NCBI RefSeq assembly: GCF_000507245.1
Contig: NC_023035.1
Coordinates: forward strand, 2,335,570 to 2,399,569
Length of the DNA: 64,000 nt
Source of the DNA: Salinispira pacifica
GTDB taxonomy: Bacteria > Spirochaetota > Spirochaetia > DSM-27196 > Salinispiraceae
Reading direction: 5' to 3'
Each line of letters opens with the position of its first letter. Within the stretch, counting starts at the first letter, position 1. A program made the translations under genes and the position numbers. Shown here piece by piece: positions 6,206-55,812 of this stretch. Under the pieces are notes generated by a model. That model did no database searches, was not told the DNA's origin, and saw nothing but the letters and a program-made list of their open reading frames with translations.

Positions 6206-6234
6206 GGCCGCCGGGAGTTCACTTTCCGGCGGCC
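6206..6234 (+). terminator. Stem-loop terminator after nqrF
   Basis: 9-bp perfect inverted repeat ggccgccgg / ccggcggcc with an 11-nt loop, immediately after the nqrF stop and followed by tgttct. Confidence 0.5.
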
Positions 6235-6257
6235 TGTTCTATAAGGAGCAGACAACC

Positions 6258-6710: not shown

Positions 6711-6726
6711 TTTTTTCTGATATTAT

Positions 6727-37894: not shown

Positions 37895-38725
37895 TCATAG
37901 CCGTTGATCCATATAGGCAACGGCAAAATCCACCAGTTCCCGTGAGGGAAGAATACGAACGGTTCCTATACCAAGGCTCAGTGTTTTCCATAGTTCGGGG
38001 TGTTCTGTACAGAAGGCCTCTCCGATCTCCTGGAAGAGATCGCTGTTGAAATCAATATCCCGGTATTCTTCCCATTGAGTTTTCCCGTTTTTCACGGACA
38101 CCGGTGCACGGTAACTGCATTGCTTATCCCGTGAGTCTGCGGCCCTGCATTCGGCCAGATGAAGCATGGTGCAGTTTTCGAACCCCACGCCCATGAGGAG
38201 AATTTTCACATTCCGGTCATACAGCCGGGCGAGGGGGCTGTGCTCCCCCATTGAGAAATCCATGGGATGGGGTTCCAGGATGGATGATGCGTCCGGGCCC
38301 ATACAGGCTATGCTGTAGTGGGGGTGGCTGCTTCGCTTCACCCCCGGCAGCGTACGGAACAGTTCCGGGGTGCGCCCCAGCCTTCTGCAGCTGGCGGTAT
38401 GAAGGTCAAAGGGGGGCATGGAATCCATCACCTGATCAATCCAGCCCTCAGGTACCGGGGGGTTTTCCCACAGTCCGGGATCACTGATATCATTGCTGTG
38501 GGCGGGCATGACAATATGCCCCCGTTCTCCCACCGCATCCTTCACTCCCTGAATCAGTGCCAGCGGACCTCCGCAGATCCAGCCGATATTATTCAGGGAA
38601 ACATGCAGCATCACATCACTGCCCGACTCAAGGGGGCTGAGCGCATCCCGCACATCCTTCCGGGTCACCGGTCCGGACCCGGTTTTCAGCATCAGGCGGT
38701 ACTCCGCCTCGTATCGTGGTTCCAT
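37895..38725 (-). CDS. Aminoglycoside N3-acetyltransferase-family protein (AAC(3)/YokD-like, PF02522 fold)
   Basis: ...VMLHVSLNNIGWICGGPLALIQGVKDAVGERGHIVMPAHSNDISDP...PPFD... reproduces the AAC(3) family core (VMVHSSLS.IG.V.GG...VI.AL.D.VG..GTLVMPTHS). Confidence 0.6.
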   Translation of the reverse strand: MEPRYEAEYRLMLKTGSGPVTRKDVRDALSPLESGSDVMLHVSLNNIGWICGGPLALIQGVKDAVGERGHIVMPAHSNDISDPGLWENPPVPEGWIDQVMDSMPPFDLHTASCRRLGRTPELFRTLPGVKRSSHPHYSIACMGPDASSILEPHPMDFSMGEHSPLARLYDRNVKILLMGVGFENCTMLHLAECRAADSRDKQCSYRAPVSVKNGKTQWEEYRDIDFNSDLFQEIGEAFCTEHPELWKTLSLGIGTVRILPSRELVDFAVAYMDQRL

Positions 38726-38759: not shown

Positions 38760-39803
38760 TCATTCCCTGAACAGCGCTTCATCTTCTATCTGGTCGTCAT
38801 AACTGGCAAATACGCTTGCACGATCCGGTTTGCTTGCCCCCGGCGGCATGAGGTCAAGCACCACCTGACCGTCCAGGGCCTGAAATACCGGCATTCCCTG
38901 GAAGCTCCCCCGCTTACCGTACTCCCCCACATGTTCCCCCAGACCGCCGCCGAATCGTCCCTTGAGGATCAGAACATTCCGGATAATCCGCCGCTCCCCC
39001 TGAAACTCCAGGGTAAGGGGCACCGGAATATACTGGCCGTTGAAGGCCCGGTTTTTCCGGTCGATTCCTGCGAGGCTGTCTTCCGTCCAGTTGATATGTG
39101 CCCGTGTACGGGCCAGCTGGATGGACGCATGTACACCGTTCATCATTTCCTGGGATACGGGCAGCACCTCACCCCGGTGCATAAGCTTCACAAGGCTTTT
39201 GATATGCCGAATCCCCGCATAGCAGGTGCGGTTGAGAAGGGATGCCGGGGTTTCGCGCCTTCGGATTGATACCGCCGGAGTGCGCCAGATTATTTCCCCG
39301 GCGTCGTACTGTTCGCTTACCCGGTGTACCGTTCCATAAAAACTCTGCATATCGCTGAGAATAGCCCAGGTTTCCGCCTCAAAGCCCCTGAGGGCAGGTA
39401 GAGGCCCCGGGTGAAAATTGATGAACCCCAGCCTGGGTGCGGAAAACAGGTCGGGAGGAAGCCATGATCCAAAGTATACAACTCCCAGGCTGTAGTTTTC
39501 CCTTCTGAACGTTTCCAGCCACTCCTGCCAGCCGGCGTTCCGGTCAGGATCGGAGAAACTTTTCAGGATCTTTTTCCTGGGCTGTCTGAGAATGGCCGGG
39601 ATGTGATGAATCCTGCATCCTTTGAACCGCTGATGGTTGAGCCTGTCCCCGGGGCGTACATACAGCCCCTCCACCTTCACCCCCTGATTAATCAGGGCGC
39701 GAACCAGATCTGCACCGCTGTCCCGCCGGGATGCAGGACGGTGACTTCCAATGAATACGCATACTTTTTCCCGCTGCCTGGGCGTAGCTGCCATGTTCTG
39801 CAC
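38760..39803 (-). CDS. Formyltransferase-family protein (Fmt/ArnA-N-like fold; not a canonical methionyl-tRNA formyltransferase)
   Basis: N-terminal ...KVCVFIGSHR...LINQGVKVEGLYV... and the substrate-loop motif INFHPGPLPALRGFEAETWAIL (compare Fmt NVHASLLPRWRGAAPIQ), plus a C-terminal Fmt-like domain. Its start abuts the cyclase stop. Confidence 0.5.
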   Translation of the reverse strand: MQNMAATPRQREKVCVFIGSHRPASRRDSGADLVRALINQGVKVEGLYVRPGDRLNHQRFKGCRIHHIPAILRQPRKKILKSFSDPDRNAGWQEWLETFRRENYSLGVVYFGSWLPPDLFSAPRLGFINFHPGPLPALRGFEAETWAILSDMQSFYGTVHRVSEQYDAGEIIWRTPAVSIRRRETPASLLNRTCYAGIRHIKSLVKLMHRGEVLPVSQEMMNGVHASIQLARTRAHINWTEDSLAGIDRKNRAFNGQYIPVPLTLEFQGERRIIRNVLILKGRFGGGLGEHVGEYGKRGSFQGMPVFQALDGQVVLDLMPPGASKPDRASVFASYDDQIEDEALFRE

Positions 39804-42734
39804 CTATTTCTGCTGGGGCCGGAGGATTCCGTCCCAGGGTTCGGGTTCACGTCCACGCTTGCGGGCTTCTTCCCGCTCGATGTGGTACCGGTCGATACAG
39901 GAAATAAACAGATCCGCAATTGCACGGTTGAATGGATCCTCCCTGATGGTCATGAACAGATCGTAGGCGGTCTGCATATTTCCTGCTTCAAAAGCTGCGA
40001 CCCCATCATTCAGAATCTGCTTGTTTCGAAGCTTGGCCTCAATCTCCTCCTCGGGCAGACCATTGAGAATCTCGTATACGCTCCGGGCCTGCTGCCTGCC
40101 CACCACCTGTATCCGTCCCATGTAGCGCTTCAGGTATTCATCGGCGGTGCTCATCGCCTCAAGGGCGTCGCTGCTGACGATGATGGAAGCGCCCATCTGC
40201 TTGGAGAGGGTCTCCAGTCTGGCGGCGAGGTTCACCGAGTCGGAGATCACCGTCCCCTGCATTCGATTCTCATCCCCCAGAATACCCAGCATCAGATCGC
40301 CGGTATGAATGCCTGCTCCCACCCGGATCTCCGGCTGCCCCTGTTCACGCTGTTCCCTGTTGTAACCGTTCAGCCGGGTAATCATGGCCACCGCCGCCTG
40401 CACTGCGTCATCGGCGCTGTCGGGAAAGAGAGCCATTATAGCGTCTCCGATATATTTATCGATAAAACCCCGTCGTTCCCGGATGACCGGCCCCACCATG
40501 CTCAGATAGGCGTTGAGAAAGTTGAAATTTTCATCCGGACTCATGCTCTCGGAGATGGCCGTAAAGCGCCTGATATCAGAGAACATGATCGTCATGGTTT
40601 TCTGCACCTGGTCTCCCAGCTTCACTTCCGTAAGATCGCTGAGATCCAGATATTTCAGAAACTGGTCGGGAAAGAACCGGCGGTAGCTCTCGTTCATATT
40701 TTCTATCTGCTGAAGATAGGTGTTGATGGAACGGCTCATGAAATTAAACCGCTTGCCCAGGTCGCTCACCTCATCGTTGCTTGTGAGCCGGATCTGGTAA
40801 TCCCAGTCCCCTTCGGCAATCCGCTCAACCCCGTTGCGTAAAATCCGCAGACTCCGGAGAATCATCACCGTCATGATCATAATAAAAACCACAATCAGGG
40901 CGGCAATCAGGGTCATCACCATCATGGTCCTGGAATAGAGCTCCCTGGCATTCTCATTAAAACTGTATAAGTCGCTGCCGATCTCCAGAAGAGCCACCAC
41001 CTGATTGCTGGAATCGTAGATCGGGCCCACGCCGTACAGCCAGTTGCCGCTGATATCCTGTACCTGTTCGAACACCACATCCCCTTCATTGGCTTTCCGG
41101 TACACGCTCTGGGGATCCTCATACCAGTTGAAGGGATGACGGAGGCCGATACGGTTATTCAGATACATAAACCCGTACAGGTTCTCATCCACAACCTGAT
41201 ACAGGGCGAAATACAGCCCTTCGTTCCAACTGTCCAGGTTGTAATTCAAGGCTTGCCGGAGATCGTTGCGTATCTGCTGATATTCTGCATTCATGTAATC
41301 ATCCATCCCGCGTATTTCATGGAACAGATCCCCGTCCACGCTTTGTCCGATGGTCTGGGTAAGAGCCAGAATTGTATCGATATTATTCTGCTCATAGGAA
41401 TCGATGAAGCTGCTTAAAAGAATGGTGGAAATGAGGAAAATTCCCCCGGCCATCAGCGGTACGATGATCAACAACTGCTTGAATACCAGAGATATCCGCC
41501 TCTTGAGAATATAAATATAGGTGTGAACCACCAGCGCCGCCAGGGCCAATCCTCCTGCAATGAGTCCCGTCCACCAGAGAAACGCCCTGACCCGCCACAT
41601 GGGCGGGATGTGATACTTTTCACTGTGTGTAATCCGGGAGTTGGCATCTCCCCCGTAGACCCCGTAATCATAGGTTGTGAGAAATCCGTTGGGGGAATAC
41701 CCCACCCGGTAATAGATAAACGGTTCATCCGAGTATCCCTTTCGGGACAGCAGCTCCCGATCCAGAACACTGCGGTATTCAACGGTGAAATTTGAGGAGT
41801 TCAGGAAGGAAATCAGGGGGATGGCTGCAATACGACGGTTGACCAGATCACTGACATACAGCCAGTCATCTCCGCCGATGGTCATATCCCAGAAATACTC
41901 GTCCGGAAGCCCGGGATCGTAAAAATAGCCGGCACCGCTATTCTGACTGGACGGGAATGACTCATCTTCCTCATCATCCGCCCGGACAGGTCCGGCGATA
42001 TCCACCCGGGACATTTCAGAGTAAATATCTCCGAGAATCATATGTCCCCGCTTATCCAGAATGATGTAATTCTCACCATCCACCCACTCAATATCCGCCA
42101 CATAGGCATTGGCGTCGGGAAAATAGCTTTCGCCGAGAATTTCCGTGGTTTCCCGTTCAAGAGATTTCCGGATGAACTGGATACCCGTATCCTGTACCAG
42201 AAAAAAATAGAGATAGCCCCGTTGAATCCGGGGACTGAAAATTTCTCCTCTCTGAATATACTCGGCCTTTTTCTCATCATACCTGCGCTGATACAGAATT
42301 CTGCGAAAATCGCCGTTCACCCCGTACTCCAGGATTTCCTCCCGCTGGATGAAGGTTCCTTTGTCATCCAGCACATAGTTGAGAATAAAAAAACTGTCTT
42401 CTTCTCCGGGAAGCACCAGGTCGGCATAGAAAAACCGTCCCTCTCTTCTGTCCCCTCCCCGGATTTCGGAGATCAACTCTCCTTCCTGGTCCGCCACAAG
42501 AATTCTTCTCAGGCTGGTGTCTATGACAATCGTTCTGTTCTGATCATCCTCCACGGCAAACTGGGGGAAATCCAGGACCGCATGACTCTGGAAAGGGTTT
42601 CTGTCACGCTCAGCAAAACCCGCCAGGATCAGAATAAGACTCACTCCCAGAACTCCCGATGCCACGGGAAGAATGCTTCTTCCAAGCTTCTGTATCCACG
42701 TCCGTTTATGATTATCAGTGCTTCGGCTGCTCAT
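39804..42734 (-). CDS. Membrane sensor adenylate/guanylate cyclase (class III): TM, NHL-repeat-like periplasmic domain, 2 TM, Cache-like periplasmic domain, TM, HAMP, cyclase
   Basis: 976 aa. HAMP (...RSLRILRNGVERIAEGDWDYQIRLTSNDEVSDLGKRFNFMSRSIN...). Class III cyclase core (TIMFSDIRRFTAISE...FIDKYIGDAIMALF...VGAGIHTGDLMLGILGDENRMQGTVISDSVNLAARLE). The periplasmic domains are paralogous to those of the adjacent gene. Confidence 0.8.
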   Translation of the reverse strand: MSSRSTDNHKRTWIQKLGRSILPVASGVLGVSLILILAGFAERDRNPFQSHAVLDFPQFAVEDDQNRTIVIDTSLRRILVADQEGELISEIRGGDRREGRFFYADLVLPGEEDSFFILNYVLDDKGTFIQREEILEYGVNGDFRRILYQRRYDEKKAEYIQRGEIFSPRIQRGYLYFFLVQDTGIQFIRKSLERETTEILGESYFPDANAYVADIEWVDGENYIILDKRGHMILGDIYSEMSRVDIAGPVRADDEEDESFPSSQNSGAGYFYDPGLPDEYFWDMTIGGDDWLYVSDLVNRRIAAIPLISFLNSSNFTVEYRSVLDRELLSRKGYSDEPFIYYRVGYSPNGFLTTYDYGVYGGDANSRITHSEKYHIPPMWRVRAFLWWTGLIAGGLALAALVVHTYIYILKRRISLVFKQLLIIVPLMAGGIFLISTILLSSFIDSYEQNNIDTILALTQTIGQSVDGDLFHEIRGMDDYMNAEYQQIRNDLRQALNYNLDSWNEGLYFALYQVVDENLYGFMYLNNRIGLRHPFNWYEDPQSVYRKANEGDVVFEQVQDISGNWLYGVGPIYDSSNQVVALLEIGSDLYSFNENARELYSRTMMVMTLIAALIVVFIMIMTVMILRSLRILRNGVERIAEGDWDYQIRLTSNDEVSDLGKRFNFMSRSINTYLQQIENMNESYRRFFPDQFLKYLDLSDLTEVKLGDQVQKTMTIMFSDIRRFTAISESMSPDENFNFLNAYLSMVGPVIRERRGFIDKYIGDAIMALFPDSADDAVQAAVAMITRLNGYNREQREQGQPEIRVGAGIHTGDLMLGILGDENRMQGTVISDSVNLAARLETLSKQMGASIIVSSDALEAMSTADEYLKRYMGRIQVVGRQQARSVYEILNGLPEEEIEAKLRNKQILNDGVAAFEAGNMQTAYDLFMTIREDPFNRAIADLFISCIDRYHIEREEARKRGREPEPWDGILRPQQK

Positions 42735-42756
42735 TGCTACTCCATTTCATTGATCT

Positions 42757-45700
42757 TCAATCTGCCTTACGAATGAATACATACGGGATTGCAATCACTG
42801 CGATGGCAATTCCCAGAAGGATCAGTCCCTGTCTCTGACCCAGAACCAGGACGGCGGCAAAAACCACCGGTCCAATGGTTTCGCCCAGCTTCCCCATCAG
42901 TTCGAAATATCCCGTGGCCCTGTCCTGTCCCACCACATGAACAATTTTCTGGGAGAAATAGAGTCCGTTCTGGCTGCTTACCGCAAATCCCTCGGTGAGC
43001 CCCATGAGAATCAGAACCAGTGCAGCGGACCAGATATTGCCGCTGAGACCCGCCAGAATTAACGCCGCACCCCACATCAGCGAACCCAGCAGGCTTCCCC
43101 AGAAGCTGCCCAGATGTTTTTCCACCAATCGGCTGAGGGGCGGACCCAGGTAGACAATAAAGAGCCCGTTCACAATGAGGAACCTGCCGATTTCCGGTGT
43201 GCTCAGTCCCCTGGCTTCGGCAAAGAGAGGGAAGTAAAAGCTCACGTATGCCGCTGCCACATAGGTGGGAAGAATCAGAAGGACAAAGTACATCCACAGC
43301 CGGGGACTGTGGATCATGGTAAGCAATGCCCTGCCATGTCCCAGTTCGCCCCGGGTATCCTGTTCCCAGAAAAACCGTGTATCCCGGTACAGGAATGCAA
43401 AAAGGATTCCGGTCATGCCGGTAAGGGCCATTCCCATGAGAAAAACATTCCGGTACCCCACCAATCCGGCAAGAGAGGCTCCAAGCACCAGTCCCACGTT
43501 TATTCCTGCTATCATGCCCGAATAAAAGTTGGAGTACGCCTGATTTCTGAGTTTTTCCCGTCCCTCTTTGTTGATGAAACTGCGAAGGGCAATATAGCCC
43601 ATACCGGTACCCAGACCCGTAAGAGACCGGGCCAAAAGAAAAGCCGGAAGAGATCCTGCCAGAGCGGAAAGCAGAAGCCCCAGAGCGCTGATAACCAGAC
43701 TTACTGCGAACACTCCCTTCCATCCCCTGTGGGCAATCAAAATGGAAGTCAAAACCGTGGCAATCCCGAAAAAGGCCATCTCAAGTGAAAGGGGCAGCGC
43801 AATTACCACATCCCTGCTCAATCCGGCCAGGGGCTGGTAGAGATCCCTGCTCAGCAAAGGCAGAAAGGCTATGGAGAAACTCACCGCAGTAAAGTAGAGA
43901 AACACCAGGGGTCGTGCAAGATTCCCGTCACTGAACCCTTCATCCCGGCTGCTCAACGGCGGAGTTGCCAGCCGGCGTTCTTTCAGCAGGGAGCTGAGAA
44001 CGGTGAGCTCTATCATCAACAGAATAAGAACAATGAGAACGGTAACCAGCTCCCAGATCAGCTCCCGGATGAGTACACGGTTTTCCTGGTTCATGGTGTA
44101 CAGATCTGTTCCCGTTTCGAAAAGAGCAACCACTTCGCCACGGCTGTTATAGATGGGTCCCACACCGTAGATCCAATCACCTGATATATCGGTATCCATC
44201 TCTGTTGCAATTCTTCCGTCCAGGGCGAGATCGTACACCCCGGGGTTTTCATCTCCCCCCAGCCAGTCGAAGGGATGATACATGGAAATGCCTCCATTCA
44301 TGTACATGAATCCGTAGAGCCGGTCATCGATTATCCGGTAGAGAGCAAAATAATATCCCTTGTTCCACTCGTCCCGGTTATTGTTGAACGCATCAATGAA
44401 GGTATTTCGAATCTCCATATACTCTTCATTCCCGAAATCCTCCTGGGATTCAATTTCACTGAAAGAATCACCGTCAATCACCAGGGGGAGCACCTGTATC
44501 ATCTGGGAAATTCTTTGAAAGATAATGCCGGTGTAGCGGTTGTTGAAATTGTTGATGAGAAGGAACGTACTCAGTGCTCCGACGGCAACGACCAGCAGGA
44601 CTACAGCCATGGAACGCACGAGAACAGGCGGGAGATTACCTTCAAAAATCCGTGAATATATGATCCACAGAAGCAAAACAGCCCCGGAGACGGTCAGGAT
44701 TACCCCGACCCACCACAGAATTCGTCCCAGAGTTCTGCCGGGTCCCAGCCTGGCGGAGGTGACAAAGCTGATATCACCTTGATCGTATATCACTATTCCT
44801 TCATCATTGGTTGTGTAAATCCTGCCATCCGGGGAAATATCCAGTCGGTAGTAATTGTACGGGTATAAATCCTCCAGGTTCATGGATGCCATGATCTGTT
44901 CCCTGCCGATGAGGGTTTCGCCTGAAACATTCCGAATTTCCTTATGCTCCAGGTCTACGAACACAATATCTCCGCCGGCGCTGCCCAGCTCCCATGGAAC
45001 AACCCCCGGAGGATTCTCGGAAGTTCCATTAAAGAGAATCCGGTTTTCCCCTGCTGCAGAAAGCCGGCGGATAGTTCCGTCCCTGAATGTTGCCACGGCA
45101 CCGGAAACGCTGTGTACTGCATCGGCAATATAGAGCATTGCCTGATCCACCTGAATGGGTTCAGCCTTCTGAATACGGTGAGGCACTGATCGGGATACTG
45201 CTGATTCTGCCTGTTCCTCTGTCTTTTGGGCTACCCGTTCCTCTGTATTTTCCGACGGGCCGTTCCCGTCGGGGAGAGAATATGTGATGGTTACCGGGGT
45301 AAGGGCATCCTCTTCAAGAATAAAAAAGCGGAGCATTCCCGGTTCCACAGCATTCAGTCCAAGAATTCTGTTCCGCTGTACAAGGGTGGGGTCGTTGTGT
45401 CCCGGAGGATATTCCCGTTCATACACCACCGAAAGCAGCTTTCCCCGGGGGCTGTAGAGCAAAATTCGTTCTCTGAGAACATAAAACCCTTTGGCATCCC
45501 GGGTTTCATCCAGGAGAAAAAGATACCCTTCCGGAGTCACACTGATCTGATTGGCATAAAAGAATCTGTTATCTTCCCGGGAACCCCCGTCAAGGCGGTA
45601 GACCAATTCCCCGTTCCCGGAGATTTTCGATACCCGTCTCAGGGATGTATCAATTACATAGTGATTACCGACGCTGTCTCCGGTGGCAAAGACCGGATAA

Positions 45701-45819
45701 TCAAATTCATAGCTGCTTCTGAGAGGATTTTCGAAACGGGAACCGCTTTCCAGAAAGAGAAGTCCGATTCCAGAGATAATCAGAACAACGGGTATAAGCC
45801 AGATATATCCTTTTTTCAT
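42757..45819 (-). CDS. Fusion protein: the same dual periplasmic sensor module (NHL-like plus Cache-like on 4 TM helices) fused to a C-terminal 12-TM MFS transporter domain
   Basis: 1020 aa from ATG 45819 (GGAG RBS). N-terminal 620 aa align with the cyclase N-terminus (VIDTSLRRV; GGSREDNRFFYA; DEWNKGYYFALYRIIDDRLYGFMYMNGGISMYHPFDW versus DSWNEGLYFALYQVVDENLYGFMYLNNRIGLRHPFNW). The C-terminal 400 aa is MFS-like (...LARSLTGLGTGMGY..., 12 hydrophobic helices). The ORF track extends to 45876. Confidence 0.65.
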   Translation of the reverse strand: MKKGYIWLIPVVLIISGIGLLFLESGSRFENPLRSSYEFDYPVFATGDSVGNHYVIDTSLRRVSKISGNGELVYRLDGGSREDNRFFYANQISVTPEGYLFLLDETRDAKGFYVLRERILLYSPRGKLLSVVYEREYPPGHNDPTLVQRNRILGLNAVEPGMLRFFILEEDALTPVTITYSLPDGNGPSENTEERVAQKTEEQAESAVSRSVPHRIQKAEPIQVDQAMLYIADAVHSVSGAVATFRDGTIRRLSAAGENRILFNGTSENPPGVVPWELGSAGGDIVFVDLEHKEIRNVSGETLIGREQIMASMNLEDLYPYNYYRLDISPDGRIYTTNDEGIVIYDQGDISFVTSARLGPGRTLGRILWWVGVILTVSGAVLLLWIIYSRIFEGNLPPVLVRSMAVVLLVVAVGALSTFLLINNFNNRYTGIIFQRISQMIQVLPLVIDGDSFSEIESQEDFGNEEYMEIRNTFIDAFNNNRDEWNKGYYFALYRIIDDRLYGFMYMNGGISMYHPFDWLGGDENPGVYDLALDGRIATEMDTDISGDWIYGVGPIYNSRGEVVALFETGTDLYTMNQENRVLIRELIWELVTVLIVLILLMIELTVLSSLLKERRLATPPLSSRDEGFSDGNLARPLVFLYFTAVSFSIAFLPLLSRDLYQPLAGLSRDVVIALPLSLEMAFFGIATVLTSILIAHRGWKGVFAVSLVISALGLLLSALAGSLPAFLLARSLTGLGTGMGYIALRSFINKEGREKLRNQAYSNFYSGMIAGINVGLVLGASLAGLVGYRNVFLMGMALTGMTGILFAFLYRDTRFFWEQDTRGELGHGRALLTMIHSPRLWMYFVLLILPTYVAAAYVSFYFPLFAEARGLSTPEIGRFLIVNGLFIVYLGPPLSRLVEKHLGSFWGSLLGSLMWGAALILAGLSGNIWSAALVLILMGLTEGFAVSSQNGLYFSQKIVHVVGQDRATGYFELMGKLGETIGPVVFAAVLVLGQRQGLILLGIAIAVIAIPYVFIRKAD

Positions 45820-45944
45820 GCAAAACTCCGGTATATTTGTTTTCACCCCGCCGCACCCGGCAGGGCTGCAGTGCATACCTACATTCTATGAGTCCCCGGG
45901 AAGGATTGCCAATACCAGGTGAAAAGAGGTAGATTCCACAAAGT

Positions 45945-47726
45945 ATGAAACAGGAAACCCGCCCCCTTACACAGCTTTGGCAATACCTCCGGCCGAAACA
46001 CGGAAAGATTCTGGCTGCCAGCGCCTTTTCGGTGTTTAACAAACTCTTTGACCTCATGCCCCCGGCCCTCATCGGGTTCGCGGTTGATATCGTGGTCAAC
46101 GGAGAGGACAGCTTTTTATCCCGTTTCGGACTTCCCAGGCCGGAACAGCAGCTGGTGGCTCTGGCCCTAATTACCGCCGTAGTGTGGCTTCTGGAATCCC
46201 TTTTTGAGTATCTCTTCGAAATCGCCTGGAAAACCCTTGCTCAACAGACCCAGGATGATATCCGCACCCATGCTTACCGACATATCCAGAATCAGCGCTA
46301 TGCGTACTTTGAAGATAAACGCACCGGTGAACTGGTGACCATTCTCAATGAAGATGTAAATCAGCTGGAGCGCTTTCTCGATGTGGGGGCCAACGATATC
46401 ATCCAGGTAATCACAACCATCGCCATCATCGGCGGAATGTATATGGTGGTGGCTCCGGGTGTGGGCTGGGTGGCGGTAATCCCCATCCCGATTATCGTCT
46501 GGGCTTCCCTCTGGTTCCAGAAATTCCTTGAACCCCGGTATGCGAAAGTCCGGGAAGCCGCAGGGGAAACCAGCAGTCAGCTGGCTACCAACATTCAGGG
46601 CATGGCCACCATCAAAAGCTACGGCAGCGAAGAGCAGGAAAATCGCCGGATCGCAGGCCTGAGCGGCGACTACCGGAGAGCCAACGAGTCCACCATCAGA
46701 CTCTCAAGCGCATTTATTCCGATGATCCGCATGATCATTCTTGCAGGGTTCCTGGCAATCATGCTGATGGCGGGCTTTCAGGCTCTCAACGGCGCCATAG
46801 CAGTAGGCCTTTACAGCATGATGGTCTACATCGTTCAACGGCTCTTATGGCCCCTTACCCGCCTGGGGCAAACATTTGATTTATATCAGAGGGCCATGGC
46901 AAGCATACGCCGGATCATGAGCATTCTTGATTCCCGGGAACATCTCGTTGACGGCGATACGCCATATCCCCCTGAAAAAGCCCGGGGACATATACAGACC
47001 AGAGACTTGAGCTTCTCCTACAAGATCGGCCCGGAAGTATTATCCCGGGTGAACATGGAAATTCAGCCCTGCTGGACGGTGGGAATCGTGGGTCCCACCG
47101 GAGCGGGGAAAACAAGTCTGATCAAACTCTTTCTTCGACTGTATGATGTAAGCTCCGGCGCATTGATCCTTGACGGAAGGGATATCCGGGACTACCGCCT
47201 GAAAGATCTGGCTGCAAACATCGGCCTGGTGAGCCAGGATGTGTTTCTCTTTCACGGAAGCGCACTGGATAATATCGCCTATGGAAAACCCGGAGCAGAC
47301 AAGGAAGAGATCATCCGGGCGGCGAAGCTGGCGGAGGCCCATGACTTTATTATGCGGCTCCCGGAAGGATACGACACCATTGTGGGGGAACGGGGACAAA
47401 AACTCAGCGGAGGTCAGCGTCAGCGCATCAGCATCGCACGGGCCATGCTGAAAGACGCACCCATTCTGATTCTGGATGAAGCCACCAGTTCGGTGGACAA
47501 TGAAACCGAAGCGGCCATTCAAAAGAGCCTCTCCAGAATTGCCCATCAGAAAACCAGTATCGTCATCGCCCACCGCCTCTCAACCATCCGGAATGCCGAC
47601 ATGATCTTTGTATTCGACAGCGGCAGGATTGCCGAATCCGGTACACATGATGAATTAATCTCACAGGATGGGCTGTACCGGAATCTCTGGCGGGTACAGA
47701 GCGGTGAACAGGTTTTCACGTTTTAA
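45945..47726 (+). CDS. ABC exporter, fused TMD-NBD (MsbA/lipid or multidrug exporter type)
   Basis: 593 aa: six N-terminal TM helices, Walker A GPTGAGKTS, signature LSGGQRQRISIARAML, Walker B ILILDEATSSVD. Confidence 0.85.
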   Translation: MKQETRPLTQLWQYLRPKHGKILAASAFSVFNKLFDLMPPALIGFAVDIVVNGEDSFLSRFGLPRPEQQLVALALITAVVWLLESLFEYLFEIAWKTLAQQTQDDIRTHAYRHIQNQRYAYFEDKRTGELVTILNEDVNQLERFLDVGANDIIQVITTIAIIGGMYMVVAPGVGWVAVIPIPIIVWASLWFQKFLEPRYAKVREAAGETSSQLATNIQGMATIKSYGSEEQENRRIAGLSGDYRRANESTIRLSSAFIPMIRMIILAGFLAIMLMAGFQALNGAIAVGLYSMMVYIVQRLLWPLTRLGQTFDLYQRAMASIRRIMSILDSREHLVDGDTPYPPEKARGHIQTRDLSFSYKIGPEVLSRVNMEIQPCWTVGIVGPTGAGKTSLIKLFLRLYDVSSGALILDGRDIRDYRLKDLAANIGLVSQDVFLFHGSALDNIAYGKPGADKEEIIRAAKLAEAHDFIMRLPEGYDTIVGERGQKLSGGQRQRISIARAMLKDAPILILDEATSSVDNETEAAIQKSLSRIAHQKTSIVIAHRLSTIRNADMIFVFDSGRIAESGTHDELISQDGLYRNLWRVQSGEQVFTF

Positions 47727-48663
47727 GCTGCTCTTTGTTTCCGTACAGCTGTGTAAGAAGGTCGTTCTCTGAACTATAGCCGTCTATAAATCTGCCTCTG
47801 GCCGATGGAAGAATGCTTTCAACGGGCAACAGAATGGCAGTTTCAAATACCGAACCGAAATGCCCGTTTTCAGCCGTGCCGAAAGACTCAATTTCCCGGC
47901 TTACTCCCAGATAGGATTTCATGAGAGGGGGCACAGGATGTCCGGCTTCAGTCATTTCCCGGGAGAAGCGCTGAAAAGCTTCATCTGAAGAGATCGTTTC
48001 GGGGTAATCCCGGAAATATTCAGCATCCTCATCCACGGCATGCTCTTTCACAGGACAGATAATGCTTCGATCTCCGGGATAATACCGGCTCCAGAAGCCG
48101 AACAGACGCTTTCGAAGCTCCTGCGGCACCCGGGGATAGACGGTCAGTTTTCCGAAGAACCACTTCAGCCCGGGAATCTCGTTGATTAATGCCCCCAGAC
48201 CGGACCACACCGCAAATAATCCCATAACCCGCCTGCGGGCCTTCCGGTTCACCACTGAGCGGCCCAGTTCGACAGTACCCCGGGAATACCCATCCATGAA
48301 GCGAGGGGAGAACCGAAATAGTCTGCCAGCCGGGGTTGAGCCCTTGAGCAGCCCGGGAGAAATCATTCCGTGGTGAATGTACCGGTAACAGGATACGATT
48401 TCCCTCCACTGCGGGTCATAGGCTATCAGCTGATAACAGTGTTCCCCGGTATCGAAGGAATCGATATCTTCACTTTTTCCGCTGCCTCCACCTTCCCGAC
48501 GGAACTCCTGTTCCCGGATGCGGCCGATCTCCTTCATGCAGTTCGGCGACGTTGTTCCATGGAGGTGATGTATTTCAAGATCACGGAACCTGGTCAGCAA
48601 ACTGTGACTTCCCAGTTCCCCGGCGAATCCGGTATCGTCTCTATCAGATACTTGTACATGCAT
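47716..48663 (-). CDS. OlsB-like GNAT N-acyltransferase (N-acyl amino acid / lyso-aminolipid synthase, hemolysin-like family)
   Basis: ...IGRIREQEFRREGGGSGKSEDIDSFDTGEHCYQLIAYD...RGTVELGRSVVNRKARRRV... parallels OlsB (RLRYEVF...DLDAFDAHCDHLLV...LELGRSCVHRDHR). C-terminal PLMKSYL-type region. The start is uncertain; the ORF track extends to 48744. Confidence 0.55.
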   Translation of the reverse strand: MHVQVSDRDDTGFAGELGSHSLLTRFRDLEIHHLHGTTSPNCMKEIGRIREQEFRREGGGSGKSEDIDSFDTGEHCYQLIAYDPQWREIVSCYRYIHHGMISPGLLKGSTPAGRLFRFSPRFMDGYSRGTVELGRSVVNRKARRRVMGLFAVWSGLGALINEIPGLKWFFGKLTVYPRVPQELRKRLFGFWSRYYPGDRSIICPVKEHAVDEDAEYFRDYPETISSDEAFQRFSREMTEAGHPVPPLMKSYLGVSREIESFGTAENGHFGSVFETAILLPVESILPSARGRFIDGYSSENDLLTQLYGNKEQLKT

Positions 48664-48765
48664 GTTTTTATCATACTCCCCGGGCCCGTGTATTGCAAGT
48701 TTGTTGACAGCATTCGAAAATCCGGAATAGTATTCAAATACCACAAATTTTTACGAGGAGACACA

Positions 48766-49516: not shown

Positions 49517-52233
49517 TCAGGAATTCTTCACGAAGTTCCGAAGTACCGTGTGAAGGATTCCGCCGTTCCTGAAATATTCCACTTCAACGGAGCTGTCAAT
49601 CCGGCAGGTTACGGTGAACTCTTTTTTGTCACCGGAGGGATCCACCGCTGTAACGGTAATATCCTGCTTGGGCGTAACCGAGTCATCCACATGAATGCTG
49701 AATTGTTCATTCCCGCTCAGTCCCAGGCTTTCGGCATTTTCGCCCTTTTTGTACATAAGGGGAAGAACTCCCATGCCGATCAGGTTGCTTCGGTGGATAC
49801 GCTCAAAGCTTTCGGCTATTACCGCCTTGACGCCCAGAAGGTACACGCCTTTTGCAGCCCAGTCACGGCTGGAACCCATTCCGTAATCCTTACCGGCCAG
49901 AACAATGCTCGGCGTGGCTTCTTCCTTATACCTGCGGCTCGCCTCAAAAATGCTCACCTGCTCACCGCTGGGAAAGTGGGTGGTCCAGCTGCCCTCGGTT
50001 CCCGGAGCGAGCTGGTTTCTCAGGCGGATATTTGCAAAAGTACCCCGGGTCATTACCCGGTCATTGCCCCGGCGGCTTCCGTAGGAATTAAAATCAAAAT
50101 ACCCCACGCCCTGTCCTTTTAGATATTTTCCCGCCGGACTTGCAGGATCAATCACCCCTGCAGGGGAAATATGGTCAGTGGTGACCGAATCCCCCACCTT
50201 CACCAGAACTCGTGCATCTTCAACCGGCTGAATTGGACTCACTTCAGTGCTCATATCCACAAAGAACGGAGGTTCCTGAATGTAGGTGGACTCTTCCTTC
50301 CAGTCATACACCTCCGATGAGCTGAGTTCAATTGCATTCCACTGGGGGTTGCTGGTTTCGATGCCTCCATAGCTTTCCTGGAAGGATTTCCTGTCCATGG
50401 CCTTTGCCACATATTCGTCGATTTCCTCTTTGGAAGGCCAGATATCCTTCAGATACACCGGCTTACCGTCTTTTCCCGTACCCAGGGGCTGACTGTCCAG
50501 ATTTACATTCATGTTCCCGGCAATGGCATAGGCCACACAGAGAGGGGGGATGCCAGGAAGTTGGCCCGGGTATCCGGGTTCACCCGGCCTTCGAAATTCC
50601 GGTTTCCCGAAAGAACGGCCGCAGCAACCAGATTGTTTTCCTGAATGGTTTTACTGATCTCTTCATTCAGCGGTCCTGAGTTTCCGATACAAGTTGTACA
50701 GCCGTAACCCACAAGATGAAAGCCCAGCTGTTCGAGATACGGCATAAGTCCTGCGGTTTTCAAATATTCGGTTACCACAACGGATCCCGGAGCGAAGCTG
50801 GTCTTCACAAAGGGCTTTGAGCTGAGCCCCGCCTCAACGGCTTTTTTGGCCAGCAGACCGGCCCCCATGAGCACCGACGGATTGGAGGTGTTGGTACAGC
50901 TCGTAATTGAGGCGATCACCACATCTCCATGGGTGAGCTCAACTTCCTCCCCTCCCTCAAGGGTCACTTTGGCAGTGGTTTCCGCCGCATCGCTGCTCTC
51001 TTCAAAACCGCCATCCTTAATGGGAGCGGTCATGAGACGTTTAAACTCCGGTGCCACCGATTTCAGTTCGATTCGGTCCTGGGGTCGTTTCGGGCCTGCG
51101 ATTGCCGGAACGATGCTTCCAAGATCCAGCTCAAGAACGGCTTCATAGTCTCTTGCATCATCCTCGCTGTCGCCATCTTCACGGTACACACCCTGAGCTC
51201 TGGTATAACTCTTTGCCAGATCCATGAGGTCTTCATCCCGGCCTGTTGAATACATATACTCCAGGGTCTTGGCATCCACCGGAAAAAATCCCGCGGTGGC
51301 GCCGTACTCGGGGGCCATATTCGCCAGAGTGGCTCTGTCCGGTACCGAAAGCACATCCAGACCGGGTCCGAAGTATTCCACTATCTTTCCTACAACGCCG
51401 TGGGCCCGGAGAAGTTCGGTAACCCTGAGAACCAGGTCGGTGGCGGTTGTGCCTGCAGGAAGGTCTCCGGTCAATTTCACTCCCACCACAGGAGGTGCCA
51501 GCATGTAGATGGGCTGTCCCAGCATGGCGGCTTCGGCCTCGATTCCGCCCACACCCCAGCCCAGAATTCCCAGACCGTTGATCATGGTTGTGTGACTGTC
51601 GGTACCCACCAGGGTATCGAAATAGGCAAAATTTTCTCCGCCGTCCTCTTTGTGCTGAACTACTTTTCCCAGATACTCAAGGTTTACCTGATGACATATT
51701 CCGCTAGCGGGGGGGACAACATGAAAGTTCTCCAGGGCTCCCTGACCCCACCTGAGAAATTCATAGCGCTCCTTGTTTCTCTCGAATTCCCGTTCGGCAT
51801 TTTTCCTGAAGGCATCGGGATGGGCGTAAAAATCGATGCTTACCGAATGGTCAATAACCAGATTCACCGGCAGTTGGGGATTAATCCGACCGGGATCACC
51901 GCCCATTCTCGCCATTGCGGAACGCAGCGCAGCCAGATCCACAACACAGGGCACACCGGTGAAATCCTGAAGAAGAACCCGGGCAGGGGTATAGGGTATT
52001 TCCACATCACCGGGCTTTTTCGGATCGTAGTTCAGGAATGATTTCAGATGATCGCTTGTAACTTCTTTTTCATTGATATTCCGCAGAACAGATTCCAGAA
52101 GGACCTTTATGCTGTAGGGGAAACGGGAAATCTGAGGGTATTTCTTTGCAAGTTCAGTAAGGGAAAAATATGAAAACTGTTTCCCCCCGGCACTCAGACT
52201 CTGCTTTACACCAAATGCATCAGAATAGGGCAT
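49517..52233 (-). CDS. acnA: Aconitate hydratase A, split into two ORFs by a -1 frameshift in a G6 tract at 50544-50549 (plus strand; C6 on the coding strand)
   Basis: N-terminal ORF 50509..52266 (...[22 protein letters not shown]...; real start MPYSDAFG at 52233 with an AGGAG RBS) ends ...[18 protein letters not shown]. The C-terminal ORF 49517..50536 begins (GTG)[12 protein letters not shown]... Adding one C restores [14 protein letters not shown], the conserved aconitase segment. Confidence 0.85.
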
Positions 52234-52314
52234 GAATTCTCCTTTAAAATAATCACCGGATAGCACCGGTGAGATGGTTTGAAAAAAAATAATTAAAACA
52301 CTCGGGTATAATCC

Positions 52315-52611: not shown

Positions 52612-55600
52612 ATGAATTATATCACTGTCTTGTTTCACCGCTTTCTGCGGCAAAAAATCGGAGGACCCCATCATAGAGGCGGGCGGGCGCTTTTTATTCT
52701 CACAGCCCTGCTTCTCCTGGTGCCCTGCATGTACGTGAATGCCGATTTGTATTCCGGTCCTACGGATCTGCTCCAGCTGGAAACCCGACATTTTCTCTTT
52801 ATATACCCCCCGGAATCTGCAGAAGCCGCTGAATATCTTGCAGGACTGGCTGACGGCATGTATGAATGGGTTGCCGATGAGCTGAATACTGATACCTGGT
52901 TTACACGTTTTCCTGTGGTCATCACCCCTGACACGGACCTGTTGAACGGAGCCTTCACAGTATTTCCTTCCCAGAGAATCAGACTCTTTCAGGCACCTAT
53001 ATCCCCCTCCACCGGTTTTGCCCGGTATAACGATCCCCTGGCAAAACTGTTCCTGCATGAACTGACCCATGCGGTTTCCCTTACCCTGAGATCCCCGTTT
53101 TTCCGGGCAGGGCGTTTTCTTTTGGGTGATGTTGTGGCTCCGGCCTTTTTCTCCGCCCCTCCGTTTTTTGTTGAAGGGGTAACCGTGGCAGCCGAAAGTG
53201 CCGACAGCTTCGGAAGGGCACATGACACCCCCTACGCCTCAGTAATCCAGCAGGATATTCTTGAAAACCGGATGATGAGTCCCATGGAAAGCAACGGCAT
53301 CCGGGGAGCGTACCCTTCCGGCGCATGGTATATCTATGGAGGCTGGTTTTCCAGGTATCTTATTGAAACCTACGGAACGGATGCCTACGCAGAATTCTGG
53401 AGTCTGCTTGGTACAGGTCAGCTCTACCAGGACGGTCTGTTTACCCGGGGAGCGTTCAGCAAGGCATTCGGAGAGTCCATCCAAAACGTCTGGGATGATT
53501 TCCGCTCCTGGATCTCAATACAAGCACCGGTTGAGTTCAACAGCCGGGTGCTGGATCCCCGGTATCAGTTTATCGGGGCAGCTGCCTCACACCCCGGCGG
53601 AATCCTGTATTCCACCAGCGATAGCGTGTATCACCTGGAATGGGAGAATGAAACCGTCATGGAAGAAGACTCCCCGTCCCCGGCTTCTTTCAGCACCGCA
53701 CCCCTCTTCCCGTCGGATAATTTCACCAACCGCATTGCCGTTCATGGCAATGAAATTCTGATCAGCACCTACCGGAGGGATTCGGAGGGGCAGTTCCACG
53801 CCAGAATCAAATCCTATGATCTTGACAGCGGCCGGCCTCAGCCCGGGCCTCTGTTTCCCGGTGAGAAAGATACTTCTCTCACTGAGGCTGTGAGGGATCC
53901 CCGGACCGGAACCATTCTGGCCATTCGGCCCCGGGGGTACTCGGGAGATCTGGTGCAGGTGAACACGGACGGCAGTATCCGGGTACTTCTGGAAGGAAAT
54001 CCAGGTCTTATCCCTTCCATGCCGGTCGTCCTGGGAGACAGGGTGTATTTCCTGCTGCAGCAGCGGGGGAAAAACCGCATCGCCCGGTTTTCACAGAACG
54101 GGAATATCGAACTGATGGAGCCCCGGGTCCCTCTCCGGGGAATCCGGAACATATCAGGAGACGGCTCCTCGCTGTACTTTATCTATGATAATGATTTCAG
54201 TCTCTTCAAACTGGGGGTTTTCACCCCCGGCGCTCCACTTCTGGTGCAGGAGCAGAGCATCAGCGGCGGAGTACAGCACCCGGTGGGAGTGGACGGTGAC
54301 AGGGTTGCATACATCGGGAATTTCAGCCGGGGCCAGCGCGTCATGCTTCATCCGGCCAGGGTGAAAGAGCCGGCCAGGGTGAAAGAGCCGGCCAGAGAGC
54401 CGGCCGAAGAAACCACCGAAGAAACCACCGAAGAAACCACCGAAGAAACCACCGAAGAAACCACCGGAGAAACCTACAGAGAGCCGGGGCGTCAGCCTGA
54501 ACCCTGGCAAAGCCGTCCGACATTGCCATCGCAAAGCCGTCAGCAGGGGCAGCTGGAAGAAATTGATTATAGCTGGGCAGCCCTGGATGTTCTCCGGGAC
54601 GGCGGCAGCAGCGGCAGCGGCAGCGGACAAGGGACGGAGAGATCCCGGGGATACGGAGGAATCCGGGTGCCCATGCCCGGGGAGCAACCTTCCGAGTTTC
54701 GCCCCGAACCATATGCAGCCCTGCCCTGGATTCTCACCCCCCGGCTGCGCTATCCCCTTGTCACCGTCAACCCACGGGTGTTGGGCGGAGCCGAAGAATC
54801 TGCCCTGATCACCGGAGCAGGCGCAGGGTTCAGCACAGAGGACCCCACAGCCGCCTACAGTCTTACGGCCAATCTGCAATACCTGTACGATCAGCCCTTC
54901 CTCCACGCAGATGTTCAGCTGGGAGTCCGCACCCTTCCGGTGGCTTTCGGTCTGGGATTCCGGGATTGGAGAGTCTATAATCCGATAATAAACGGCGAGT
55001 TTCGGGGAGACAGCCGGGTGCTGTCCGCCTCCCTGTCTGCATCCCAGTCAATCAGCCTTTATCCTCTCTGGCGAAACATCAGCTGGCAGCTGCAGGCAGA
55101 ATTTGTACAGCAGTTCGATGAAGATCCGGATGAGGAAGCAGGCCCCTACGGCTGGGACGCTGCAGGATGGCGGGTTCCCATCACCGCCGCCCTGGGCTTC
55201 AGCTCCGTCAGGGATAATCCCCTGGATCATCGGGGATCTGCGGGAATACGCAGCCGTCTTTCCGGTGTGGGTCTTTTCTCCCAGGCCGGGGATGTACCGT
55301 TCACAGGATATGCCGGCTTGAAACTTGAAGGAGAAACTCCCTGGATGTACGGCAGACTCCGTCTCTTTTCCGCCATCTCACTCCAGCAGTCAACCGGGGT
55401 CAGTCCGGCGGGAGCTATCATTCCCGGTGTGAGTACCGGGTCTTTCAACACCGACTATGTTGTCCACCCGGGTTTCTCTGCAGAGGCGGAAACCGGCGGA
55501 ACCGTGTATTCCTTCGGGGAAATCCGCATCGGGCAGAAATATGACATTCACAGGGGAATACTCAGCCTGGCCTATCTGCAGAAACTGAAAATCAGAGGGG

Positions 55601-55812
55601 GGCACAGAATATCCGTGCAGGATAACCTTCTCCTGGAAGAGGGGGTGATCAACCAGTCCAGCTTCATTGCACCCAGCATGGAGTTTGTGATCAATGGAGG
55701 AGCCCTGGCCCGGACGGCATGGGAGGTTGGAGCCGAGTTCAATTACCTCTATGGAGGGGGTGGGAATCCCTGGTATATCTCCCTCTTTTTGACCCCTCCG
55801 GGAGGTTTTTAG
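52612..55812 (+). CDS. Large secreted multidomain protein: N-terminal HExxH (zinc metallopeptidase-like) region, beta-propeller-like middle, tandem peptide repeats, probable C-terminal outer-membrane beta-barrel
   Basis: Signal peptide ...ALFILTALLLLVPCMYVNA. HELTH motif (LAKLFLHELTHAVSLT). TolB/PD40-like repeats (DGSIRVLLEGNPG, DGDRVAYIGNF). Repeats PARVKE x2 and EETT x5, and a (GS)n linker. The last 350 aa have amphipathic beta pattern ending ...WYISLFLTPPGGF* (terminal Phe). Confidence 0.55.
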   Translation: MNYITVLFHRFLRQKIGGPHHRGGRALFILTALLLLVPCMYVNADLYSGPTDLLQLETRHFLFIYPPESAEAAEYLAGLADGMYEWVADELNTDTWFTRFPVVITPDTDLLNGAFTVFPSQRIRLFQAPISPSTGFARYNDPLAKLFLHELTHAVSLTLRSPFFRAGRFLLGDVVAPAFFSAPPFFVEGVTVAAESADSFGRAHDTPYASVIQQDILENRMMSPMESNGIRGAYPSGAWYIYGGWFSRYLIETYGTDAYAEFWSLLGTGQLYQDGLFTRGAFSKAFGESIQNVWDDFRSWISIQAPVEFNSRVLDPRYQFIGAAASHPGGILYSTSDSVYHLEWENETVMEEDSPSPASFSTAPLFPSDNFTNRIAVHGNEILISTYRRDSEGQFHARIKSYDLDSGRPQPGPLFPGEKDTSLTEAVRDPRTGTILAIRPRGYSGDLVQVNTDGSIRVLLEGNPGLIPSMPVVLGDRVYFLLQQRGKNRIARFSQNGNIELMEPRVPLRGIRNISGDGSSLYFIYDNDFSLFKLGVFTPGAPLLVQEQSISGGVQHPVGVDGDRVAYIGNFSRGQRVMLHPARVKEPARVKEPAREPAEETTEETTEETTEETTEETTGETYREPGRQPEPWQSRPTLPSQSRQQGQLEEIDYSWAALDVLRDGGSSGSGSGQGTERSRGYGGIRVPMPGEQPSEFRPEPYAALPWILTPRLRYPLVTVNPRVLGGAEESALITGAGAGFSTEDPTAAYSLTANLQYLYDQPFLHADVQLGVRTLPVAFGLGFRDWRVYNPIINGEFRGDSRVLSASLSASQSISLYPLWRNISWQLQAEFVQQFDEDPDEEAGPYGWDAAGWRVPITAALGFSSVRDNPLDHRGSAGIRSRLSGVGLFSQAGDVPFTGYAGLKLEGETPWMYGRLRLFSAISLQQSTGVSPAGAIIPGVSTGSFNTDYVVHPGFSAEAETGGTVYSFGEIRIGQKYDIHRGILSLAYLQKLKIRGGHRISVQDNLLLEEGVINQSSFIAPSMEFVINGGALARTAWEVGAEFNYLYGGGGNPWYISLFLTPPGGF
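54352..54474 (+). repeat. In-frame coding tandem repeats: 18-bp unit x2 (PARVKE) plus 12-bp unit gaagaaaccacc x5 (EETT)
   Basis: Seen directly; perfect copies. Inside the large protein gene. Confidence 0.85.

Follow-up and report, generated by a model that had tools for sequence, protein, structure and literature searches.

A predicted two-ectodomain input module shared by adjacent cyclase and MFS permease genes in Salinispira pacifica and other bacteria

The locus and its genes

In this study, we have analysed two adjacent genes of Salinispira pacifica that encode homologous membrane-bound sensor modules followed by different outputs, a permease of the major facilitator superfamily (MFS) in one protein, and a HAMP domain with a class III nucleotidyl cyclase in the other. 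The genes lie in a window of 64,000 nucleotides (the whole stretch of DNA that was analysed, from contig NC_023035.1), to which all coordinates refer unless a locus is named. Judging from sequence and gene order, this region is a conserved three-gene operon made of the sensor-MFS gene, the sensor-HAMP-cyclase gene and an Fmt-like formyltransferase gene, preceded by a candidate promoter (aa, amino acids; ORF, open reading frame):

45883..45912, minus strand: candidate sigma-70-like promoter TTGGCA-18-TAGAAT, 10 of 12 matches in a consensus scan (a consensus match only)
42757..45819, minus strand: sensor-MFS gene, 1020 aa from the ATG at 45819; ORF call, 100% match to the S. pacifica protein annotated 'MFS transporter'
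39804..42734, minus strand: sensor-HAMP-adenylate cyclase gene, 976 aa; ORF call, 100% match to the S. pacifica 'adenylate/guanylate cyclase domain-containing protein'
38760..39803, minus strand: third gene of the cassette, Fmt-like formyltransferase, 347 aa; Pfam Formyl_trans_N, 42.7 bits; begins on the base after the cyclase stop codon

The longest ORF for the sensor-MFS gene, co-oriented with that of the cyclase, spans 42757..45876 on the minus strand (1039 aa), and a first-pass annotation of this DNA had placed the pair at 39804-45876. Both ORFs are indeed found there, but the true start of the sensor-MFS gene is most likely the ATG at 45819 (MKKGY...), because a GGAG lies upstream of it, the promoter-like site has its end at 45883, and this ATG is where the NCBI protein and all orthologues start. 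The candidate promoter sits in the 125-bp gap between the sensor-MFS gene and a divergent ABC gene, and the sensor-MFS and cyclase genes are spaced by 22 nt. A scan of the whole window against Rfam returned no RNA families.

The shared input module

The two proteins are related over their entire N-terminal part. BLASTP aligned residues 21-629 of the cyclase protein with residues 27-630 of the MFS protein in one segment (30% identity, 47% positives, E 2e-67), with the four transmembrane helices (TM1, TM2, TM3 and TM4) at corresponding positions in a hydropathy scan, which bears out the initial observation that about 620 residues align end to end. A test set beforehand was whether the similarity would be restricted to transmembrane or low-complexity regions. 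It is not, as the window paralogues are 26% identical in ectodomain 1, 22% in TM2-TM3, 45.5% in ectodomain 2 and 29% in TM4. We modelled the structure of the module of the MFS protein (predicted local distance difference test, pLDDT, 83.6; predicted template modelling score, pTM, 0.82), and its elements are TM1 (5-23), an all-beta domain (about 30-358), TM2 and TM3 as long helices (360-447), an alpha/beta domain (about 450-572) and TM4 (573-614). Boundaries in the cyclase protein were obtained by mapping onto this model an alignment of 17 sensor modules from both families, eight of them from the cyclase family:

44746..45732, minus strand: ectodomain 1 of the MFS protein (aa 30-358), modelled as a six-bladed NHL-type beta-propeller
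44545..44742, minus strand: TM2-TM3 hairpin of the MFS protein (aa 360-425) by hydropathy scan; model helices 360-390 and 398-447
44104..44544, minus strand: ectodomain 2 of the MFS protein (aa 426-572), modelled as a single Cache (PDC) domain, CitA-like
43978..44103, minus strand: TM4 of the MFS protein (aa 573-614; model helix 573-614), with the predicted membrane-embedded Glu604 at 44008..44010
41607..42602, minus strand: ectodomain 1 of the cyclase protein (aa 45-376), a homologue of the MFS-protein propeller at 26% identity, by alignment onto the model boundaries
40971..41405, minus strand: ectodomain 2 of the cyclase protein (aa 444-588), sCache by the same mapping; 45.5% identity to its paralogue and a weak sCache_3_3 match

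According to the model, the propeller is inserted between TM1 and TM2 and the Cache domain between TM3 and TM4, both outside the membrane. The N-terminus is basic and predicted to be in the cytoplasm, and therefore both ectodomains would face outwards, while TM4 would place the HAMP domain, or in the other protein the first helix of the permease, on the cytoplasmic side, the orientation that each requires. Modelled ectodomain 1 is a six-bladed propeller that is nearest in structure to NHL domains, and neither window protein has a Pfam NHL match at E<=1. In the same model, ectodomain 2 has the PDC fold: it opens with a long helix, has an antiparallel sheet at its centre flanked by helices, and ends in a strand that runs into the transmembrane helix. 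The Pfam Cache cut-off is not reached by the cyclase protein (sCache_3_3, E 0.1, 13.4 against 28.8 bits); weak matches to this family are present in 7 of the 17 members, the best at E 0.0036. The early NHL-like and Cache-like calls therefore hold at the level of the modelled fold, but not at that of a Pfam threshold, and a double Cache was rejected since there is one PDC unit only. NCBIfam has no model that covers the sensor module.

The Cache domain is the best conserved part of the module: 30 of its 147 columns are invariant across the 17 modules (20%, as compared to 5% of the propeller), and they account for 30 of the 50 such columns in the whole alignment of both families. Aromatic, acidic and Asn residues predominate at these Cache positions, and no Lys, Arg or His is invariant there. 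Family-wide, of those 50 columns, only about nine Cache positions keep at least 85% conservation in all output classes.

The cyclase output

The C-terminal part of the cyclase protein has three elements:

40722..40865, minus strand: HAMP domain (aa 624-671); Pfam HAMP, E 6.4e-9, 36.5 bits against a cut-off of 25
40086..40604, minus strand: class IIIb nucleotidyl cyclase catalytic domain (aa 711-883); Pfam Guanylate_cyc, 64 bits against a cut-off of 21.9
39807..40085, minus strand: helical C-terminal tail (aa 884-976), conserved in orthologues P0013-P0018; no Pfam match

HAMP directly follows TM4 (about 603-627). In a residue-level alignment, the best relatives of the cyclase domain in the PDB are the bacteriophytochrome-fusion cyclase (6fht), OaPAC, bPAC, CyaC and CyaB, and the six canonical residues are all present, namely the metal-binding D720 and D764, the substrate-specifying K760 and T828, and the transition-state N835 and R839. 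By the Pfam match and this residue signature, the protein is a class IIIb adenylate cyclase, with catalysis predicted. The product had at first been given as cAMP or cGMP (cyclic AMP or cyclic GMP); the Lys760/Thr828 pair designates ATP as the predicted substrate and therefore cAMP as the predicted product, and a guanylate cyclase was rejected on the same pair.

This signature (DKDTNR) is intact in the window cyclase and in every MFS-paired cyclase that we examined. Of 72 full-length family members compared, about 20 have a degenerate version (NNATNI or NKANNM, for instance; among P0084-P0165), and these representatives of the sensor-HAMP-cyclase form are probably pseudo-cyclases. Two degenerate members with contigs examined (L029:431-3196 and L030:8001-10778) have no sensor-MFS gene alongside. 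Downstream of the second are genes for a cNMP_binding protein and a partner-switching set (HATPase_c_2, STAS, GAF-SpoIIE). The tail of the cyclase, about 90 aa, is predicted to be helical (…EEEIEAKLR…, ending in …EPWDGILRP..K) and is kept among the cassette cyclases.

The permease output

In the other protein, the module is followed by a permease, so that the two C-termini differ as had been described, with Pfam scores of 36.5 (HAMP) and 64 bits (Guanylate_cyc) in one gene and 87.5 bits (MFS_1) in the other:

42760..43914, minus strand: MFS permease domain (aa 636-1020); Pfam MFS_1

The MFS_1 match covers residues 658-973 (cut-off 33.4 bits) and profile positions 5-319 of 347. As it extends over both six-helix halves, this is, by its Pfam assignment, a member of the major facilitator superfamily, with transport predicted. 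A single-sequence search of the PDB with the MFS domain gave no match. With a profile of 13 family members, the PDB matches were YajR (1.5e-13), NorA over its full length (residues 13-377, 5e-11), VMAT1/2, EmrB, EmrD and EfpA, and these exporter-type proteins scored ahead of sialin, SLC37 and galactonate transporters. The nearest solved relatives are thus exporters of the DHA1/SLC18 type. NCBIfam assigned the permease to no subfamily; a multidrug-type superfamily model and uptake symporters, aromatic-acid ones among them (MhpT, AAHS, galactonate), gave weak matches of nearly equal score. From these comparisons, export appears as likely as import for the sensor-MFS permease.

The canonical MFS motif A (G-x-L-a-D-r-x-G-r-k, in the TM2-TM3 loop of the permease) is not found in the window protein, which has LIAHRGWKG; its orthologues share only G-W-K, without conservation of the Asp and Arg. 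Departures from motif A are common among genuine MFS members too, and the assignment is weakened by this rather than excluded. The antiporter motif C (G-x-x-x-G-P) is partial in the family, as its Pro is absent. What is conserved are glycine-rich motifs in TM4/TM5 of the permease and R636 at its start, with few conserved charged residues. Both R636 and E604, the latter in TM4 of the sensor, are at least 95% conserved in 80 sensor-MFS proteins, and the position of E604 is occupied by M, T or S in the eight aligned cyclase-family modules. Based on this pattern, Glu604 is a candidate coupling residue between sensor and permease.

Distribution and evolution of the module

A profile search of 1.84 billion cluster representatives (50% identity) recovered 372 proteins at E<=1e-30, nearly all of them over the whole module. 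Architectures were determined in a sample of 166 proteins, made up of the best 150 of this search and of earlier matches. The sensor-MFS form is the commonest (87 of 166), followed by sensor-HAMP-cyclase (57), and at least seven carry other outputs after HAMP according to Pfam: a histidine kinase, a hybrid kinase, three kinase-receiver-SpoIIE proteins, a methyl-accepting chemotaxis protein (MCP) and a phosphatase of the SpoIIE/PP2C type. The remainder were mostly fragments or unexamined. The presence of the module on at least five kinds of signalling output argues for a sensing role. The sensor-MFS fusion had been regarded as a rare architecture, which these counts contradict for this family. 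In the searchable literature, the coverage of which is incomplete, we found no description of the module, of a sensor-MFS fusion, of the cassette or of signalling in Salinispira; rather than rare, the fusion thus seems to be undescribed and unannotated.

The first-pass annotation had also proposed a duplication with an effector swap. The different outputs carried by homologous modules agree with this, but the event is ancient and not local. The MFS-type modules of Gammaproteobacteria and of other spirochaetes are 37-40% identical to the module of the window MFS protein and 27-31% identical to that of the window cyclase, as compared to 31% within the window pair. Since MFS-type modules from different phyla are closer to each other than the window paralogues are, the duplication predates the spread of the cassette, and a recent local duplication was rejected on these identities. 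In a second clade, in which the cyclase gene comes first, identities are saturated (about 22%). A neighbour-joining tree of 152 modules gave large pure MFS or cyclase blocks with no clean two-clade split under midpoint rooting, and was not used to decide between one and several duplications. Partner MFS and cyclase modules have a mean identity of 27.3%, as compared to 24.8% for non-partners (permutation p 0.0002); covariation of partners as evidence for a shared ligand was nevertheless rejected, because the identity matrix traces this excess to clade structure.

Gene context and the third gene

Loci were collected from contig look-ups and from a scan of one genome per GTDB species, and were annotated with purpose-built hidden Markov models. 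The sensor-MFS and sensor-cyclase genes are adjacent in 19 other distinct loci of Spirochaetota and Gammaproteobacteria. In 13 of these, the MFS gene precedes the cyclase gene as in the window; they belong to relatives of Salinispira, other Spirochaetota, a metagenome-assembled genome (MAG) of Cardiobacteriales, Marinospirillum and a Pseudomonadaceae MAG, and their flanks are unrelated (FeoB and BCCT genes in one, RND efflux and LysR genes in another). The order is reversed in six loci of Leptospirales and Spirochaetia that form the more divergent clade. This adjacency, kept in two phyla amid differing flanks, supports the functional linkage of the pair that had been suspected at first. In two Salinispira MAGs (L016:7875-10924 and L020:7953-14982), cassette genes are split into several ORFs, which probably reflects assembly indel errors rather than pseudogenes.

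The first-pass annotation dealt with the pair and overlooked a conserved third gene. A protein of about 340 aa with a Formyl_trans_N domain comes next in 12 of the 13 loci with the MFS gene first, and in the thirteenth (L006) the contig ends inside the cyclase gene. In all six loci of the other order, the third gene instead encodes a stand-alone LPG_synthase_C protein (PF09924) of about 296 aa, with E-values of 1e-30 to 1e-33. Stop/start overlaps of 4 or 8 bp are frequent in the cassettes. The LPG_synthase_C genes, which belong to the family of the MprF C-domain, are located as follows:

L021:9078-9977: third gene, LPG_synthase_C
L022:13765-14652: third gene, LPG_synthase_C
L023:13768-14655: third gene, LPG_synthase_C
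L024, L025 and L026: third gene, LPG_synthase_C

The window formyltransferase matches Fmt in the PDB (4iqf, E 2e-13), in an alignment that reaches the Fmt C-terminal domain, and the Asn-x-His...Asp triad and the folate-loop motif are invariant in 13 cassette copies. The protein does not reach the cut-off of the NCBIfam fmt equivalog (TIGR00460; 55.5 against 201.5 bits). By these sequence comparisons, the third gene encodes a formyltransferase-fold protein of a distinct subfamily, and not Fmt itself.

Among the loci we collected, pairing with an MFS gene is specific to the cyclase version of the module, as the MCP and the kinase or kinase-SpoIIE versions that were checked have no MFS neighbour. 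One MCP version (L027:1044-9853) lies downstream of a CUT2-type ABC transporter (two ABC_tran and two BPD_transp_2 domains) and of a 505-aa protein without a Pfam match, a possible further link between sensor and transporter. In the window, the cassette is flanked by three genes that were considered as parts of it and rejected, since they are syntenic only in close relatives of Salinispira:

45945..47726, plus strand: divergent ABC exporter (ABC_membrane and ABC_tran)
47716..48744, minus strand: GNAT protein (Acetyltransf_5)
37895..38725, minus strand: acetyltransferase of the Antibiotic_NAT family

Two further features of the window lie outside the cassette. An aconitase gene is interrupted, giving two ORFs that overlap (49517..50536 and 50509..52266, minus strand), with the break at 50509-50560 at a run of C, TCCCCCCTCTCTG. 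One added C at TCCCCCCTCTCTG would rejoin the reading frame, and the orthologue in L001 is a single gene of 946 aa; the break is either a homopolymer sequencing error or a real frameshift. In a 1066-aa ORF (52612..55812), positions 54352-54474 contain perfect or near-perfect in-frame tandem repeats (18 bp x 2.4, PARVKE; 12 bp x 5.9, EETT) that encode an acidic low-complexity linker.

Interpretation

Based on our results, we favour, at somewhat better than even chances, the reading that one external cue addresses two paralogous receptors, of which one makes cAMP and the other controls or feeds an MFS carrier, while a cytoplasmic transferase acts on the compound. In the cyclase protein, binding of the cue would change the ectodomains, and this change would pass through TM4 to HAMP and to the homodimeric cyclase, which would make cAMP. 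In the MFS protein, TM4 with its buried Glu would be followed by a cytoplasmic linker of about 20 residues and by the first helix of a 12-TM permease, and the module would either gate the alternating-access cycle or capture the substrate and hand it over. One extracellular compound, or a closely related pair, would thus be signalled as cAMP and moved, in one direction or the other, by a sensor-controlled transporter, and the third enzyme would act on the transported compound in the cytoplasm. The logic of one compound comes from the fact that both modules keep the same conserved Cache residues and that the genes are co-inherited. Speculatively, an amine-type compound would fit the acidic and aromatic Cache residues together with the SLC18/NorA-like relatives of the permease. 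Fmt and the MprF synthase domain, the prototypes of the two third-gene families, both use aminoacyl-tRNA, which may also be a hint at the chemistry.

Several observations weigh against this reading. The proposal of a same ligand comes from shared conservation only, and the Cache domain of the window MFS protein is 45% identical to that of its own cyclase and 42-46% identical to those of the cyclases of other genomes, with no partner-specific covariation beyond the clades. The degenerate motif A (HRGWK) and the few conserved charges of the permease mean that its transport competence is not assured. Furthermore, four loci of Thiomargarita and Thiotrichaceae (L003, L007, L008 and L015) have a sensor-MFS gene without an adjacent sensor-cyclase or formyltransferase gene, and therefore the transporter can work without its paralogue. 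Finally, promoter and terminator support for the transcription unit is limited to consensus matches. At L015, a 1802-aa ORF directly upstream of the sensor-MFS gene (2340-7748) ends in a cyclase-like domain and lacks this sensor module.

Should the module indeed gate transport, bacteria would offer in the sensor-MFS proteins a clear case of ligand gating in an MFS carrier. We would propose, tentatively and with less confidence than the reading itself, that they represent the first case on record of secondary transporters under direct gating by a receptor module fused to them outside the cytoplasm (propeller and Cache, through TM4 and the buried Glu), in constant partnership with the paralogous receptor cyclase and a dedicated transferase, in a self-contained circuit that makes or modifies, moves and signals a possibly amine-type compound, and that has spread between Spirochaetota and Gammaproteobacteria. 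The paralogous cyclase represents a built-in cAMP reporter, which makes ligand screening feasible in a cya-deficient E. coli, to be followed by tests of the transporter. Independently of this proposal, the module is a new input domain of about 600 aa in at least 372 clusters (50% identity, E<=1e-30), the members of which public annotation calls only 'MFS transporter' or 'adenylate cyclase'.

Other explanations of the same data have to be weighed. The one that survives best, although we consider it unlikely, is a loop of producer, exporter and receptor, in which the transferase makes a small molecule, the DHA1-like permease exports it and the cyclase senses it outside in an autocrine or quorum-like manner, the sensor on the exporter providing feedback. 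The order of the permease profile matches, with exporter-type proteins (YajR, NorA, VMAT1/2, EmrB, EmrD, EfpA) above symporters, speaks in its favour, although the E-values to exporters are modest, the single-sequence NCBIfam search gave near-equal weak matches to uptake symporters, and motif C is only partial without its Pro. It would also account for a conserved third gene of a biosynthetic type, with an intact triad, that abuts or overlaps the upstream gene and is replaced by another transferase in the second clade; yet one transferase makes for a meagre pathway, and the surroundings hold no further conserved biosynthetic genes. The acidic and aromatic invariant Cache residues, devoid of Lys, Arg and His, would suit an amine, and DHA1/SLC18 transporters move amines.

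Another explanation, quite improbable in our view, is that the sensor-MFS protein is mainly a sensing partner of the sensor-cyclase (a transceptor that reports flux or does not transport) in a co-receptor complex held by the ectodomains and TM helices, the state of the transporter tuning cAMP as in DctA-DcuS or UhpC-UhpB. Homologous modules could heteromerise, co-inheritance is strict in most lineages, and the permease has a degenerate motif A and few conserved charges. On the other hand, sensor-MFS genes stand alone in Thiotrichaceae and Thiomargarita, and there is no partner-specific covariation. The HAMP-cyclase must itself homodimerise as well, since class III cyclases need a homodimer for two symmetric active sites.

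The module could also be a sensor of the physical state of the envelope, or a periplasmic enzyme. Its propeller, instead of taking up a small ligand, would then act on or bind an envelope polymer, or respond to osmotic or ionic stress; the envelope would be remodelled by the MFS protein together with the third enzyme (through flipping of a modified lipid, for instance), and the cyclase would report the stress. We give this little credence. It draws on a weak Vgb_lyase Pfam match in one family member, on the third gene of L021-L026, which belongs to the family of the MprF lipid-aminoacylation domain, on the presence of EfpA, a lipid-transporting MFS protein, among the PDB relatives, and on the saline or sulfidic habitats of the host organisms. 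However, the most conserved part of the module is the Cache domain, a typical small-ligand binder (20% invariant columns, against 5% in the propeller), we identified no catalytic motif known from propeller enzymes, and the formyltransferase clade has no known lipid link. Lastly, that the genes are uncoupled tandem paralogues, neighbours through duplication only, would agree with their tandem, co-oriented and homologous nature but is effectively excluded by the conserved adjacency, as the duplication is older than the split of the lineages and yet the genes are side by side in 19 other loci of two phyla, in either order and amid unrelated neighbours.

Comparison with known systems

Rv3645 of M. 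tuberculosis is a membrane-anchored class III adenylate cyclase with a HAMP linker. Together with CyaC of Spirulina, CyaB of P. aeruginosa, bPAC and OaPAC, it resembles the cyclase described here in the TM-HAMP-homodimeric IIIb order, the Lys/Thr pair, the two metal-binding Asp and the Asn/Arg. The S. pacifica protein adds a new member to the receptor-type class IIIb cyclases; unlike the known ones, it has a four-TM propeller and sCache input that is absent from Pfam and NCBIfam, and a conserved C-terminal tail of about 90 aa. Sequence similarity of the module to the sCache domains of histidine kinases of the CitA and DcuS type is marginal (sCache_3_3, E 0.004 at best among the 17 members). 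In CitA and DcuS, basic residues bind carboxylates, whereas the invariant residues here are acidic or aromatic and none is basic; another ectodomain and two additional TM helices also come before the Cache domain. With regard to NHL domains, such as the extracellular propeller of the Ser/Thr kinase PknD of M. tuberculosis, the modelled propeller differs in having no Pfam NHL match, in being inserted between two TMs instead of terminal, and in being joined to a Cache domain. YajR, NorA and VMAT1/2 are the best solved relatives of the permease, but they are distant (E 1e-11 to 1e-13) and are without the N-terminal sensor of about 620 aa. The third gene shares the Formyl_trans_N fold, the Asn-His-Asp triad and the HPG-LP-L-G folate loop with Fmt, the ArnA N-domain and the FDH N-domain, although it falls far below the Fmt equivalog cut-off, as a distinct subfamily.

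Bacterial transceptors have been described in which a transporter is fused to a histidine kinase, an SLC5 transporter in CbrA (PMC13022988, PMC7096432) and an Amt transporter in Ks-Amt5 (PMC5764959). Like these proteins, the window pair ties solute transport and signalling together, physically or genetically. The key distinction is that in CbrA and Ks-Amt5 the transporter is the input to the kinase within one polypeptide, whereas here a dedicated extracytoplasmic sensor is the predicted input, placed on the transporter and on the cyclase separately. The pair is thus not a transceptor of the CbrA type, as Pfam finds no output domain after the permease and no transporter domain in the cyclase protein. 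In DctA-DcuS and UhpC-UhpB, a transporter or transporter-like protein and a signalling protein are encoded together and serve one substrate; their sensing parts are not paralogous, whereas the window pair shares one input module. Bacterial inputs of the Cache type are known to feed kinases, chemoreceptors and cyclases, and here the same input module is also placed directly on a secondary transporter.

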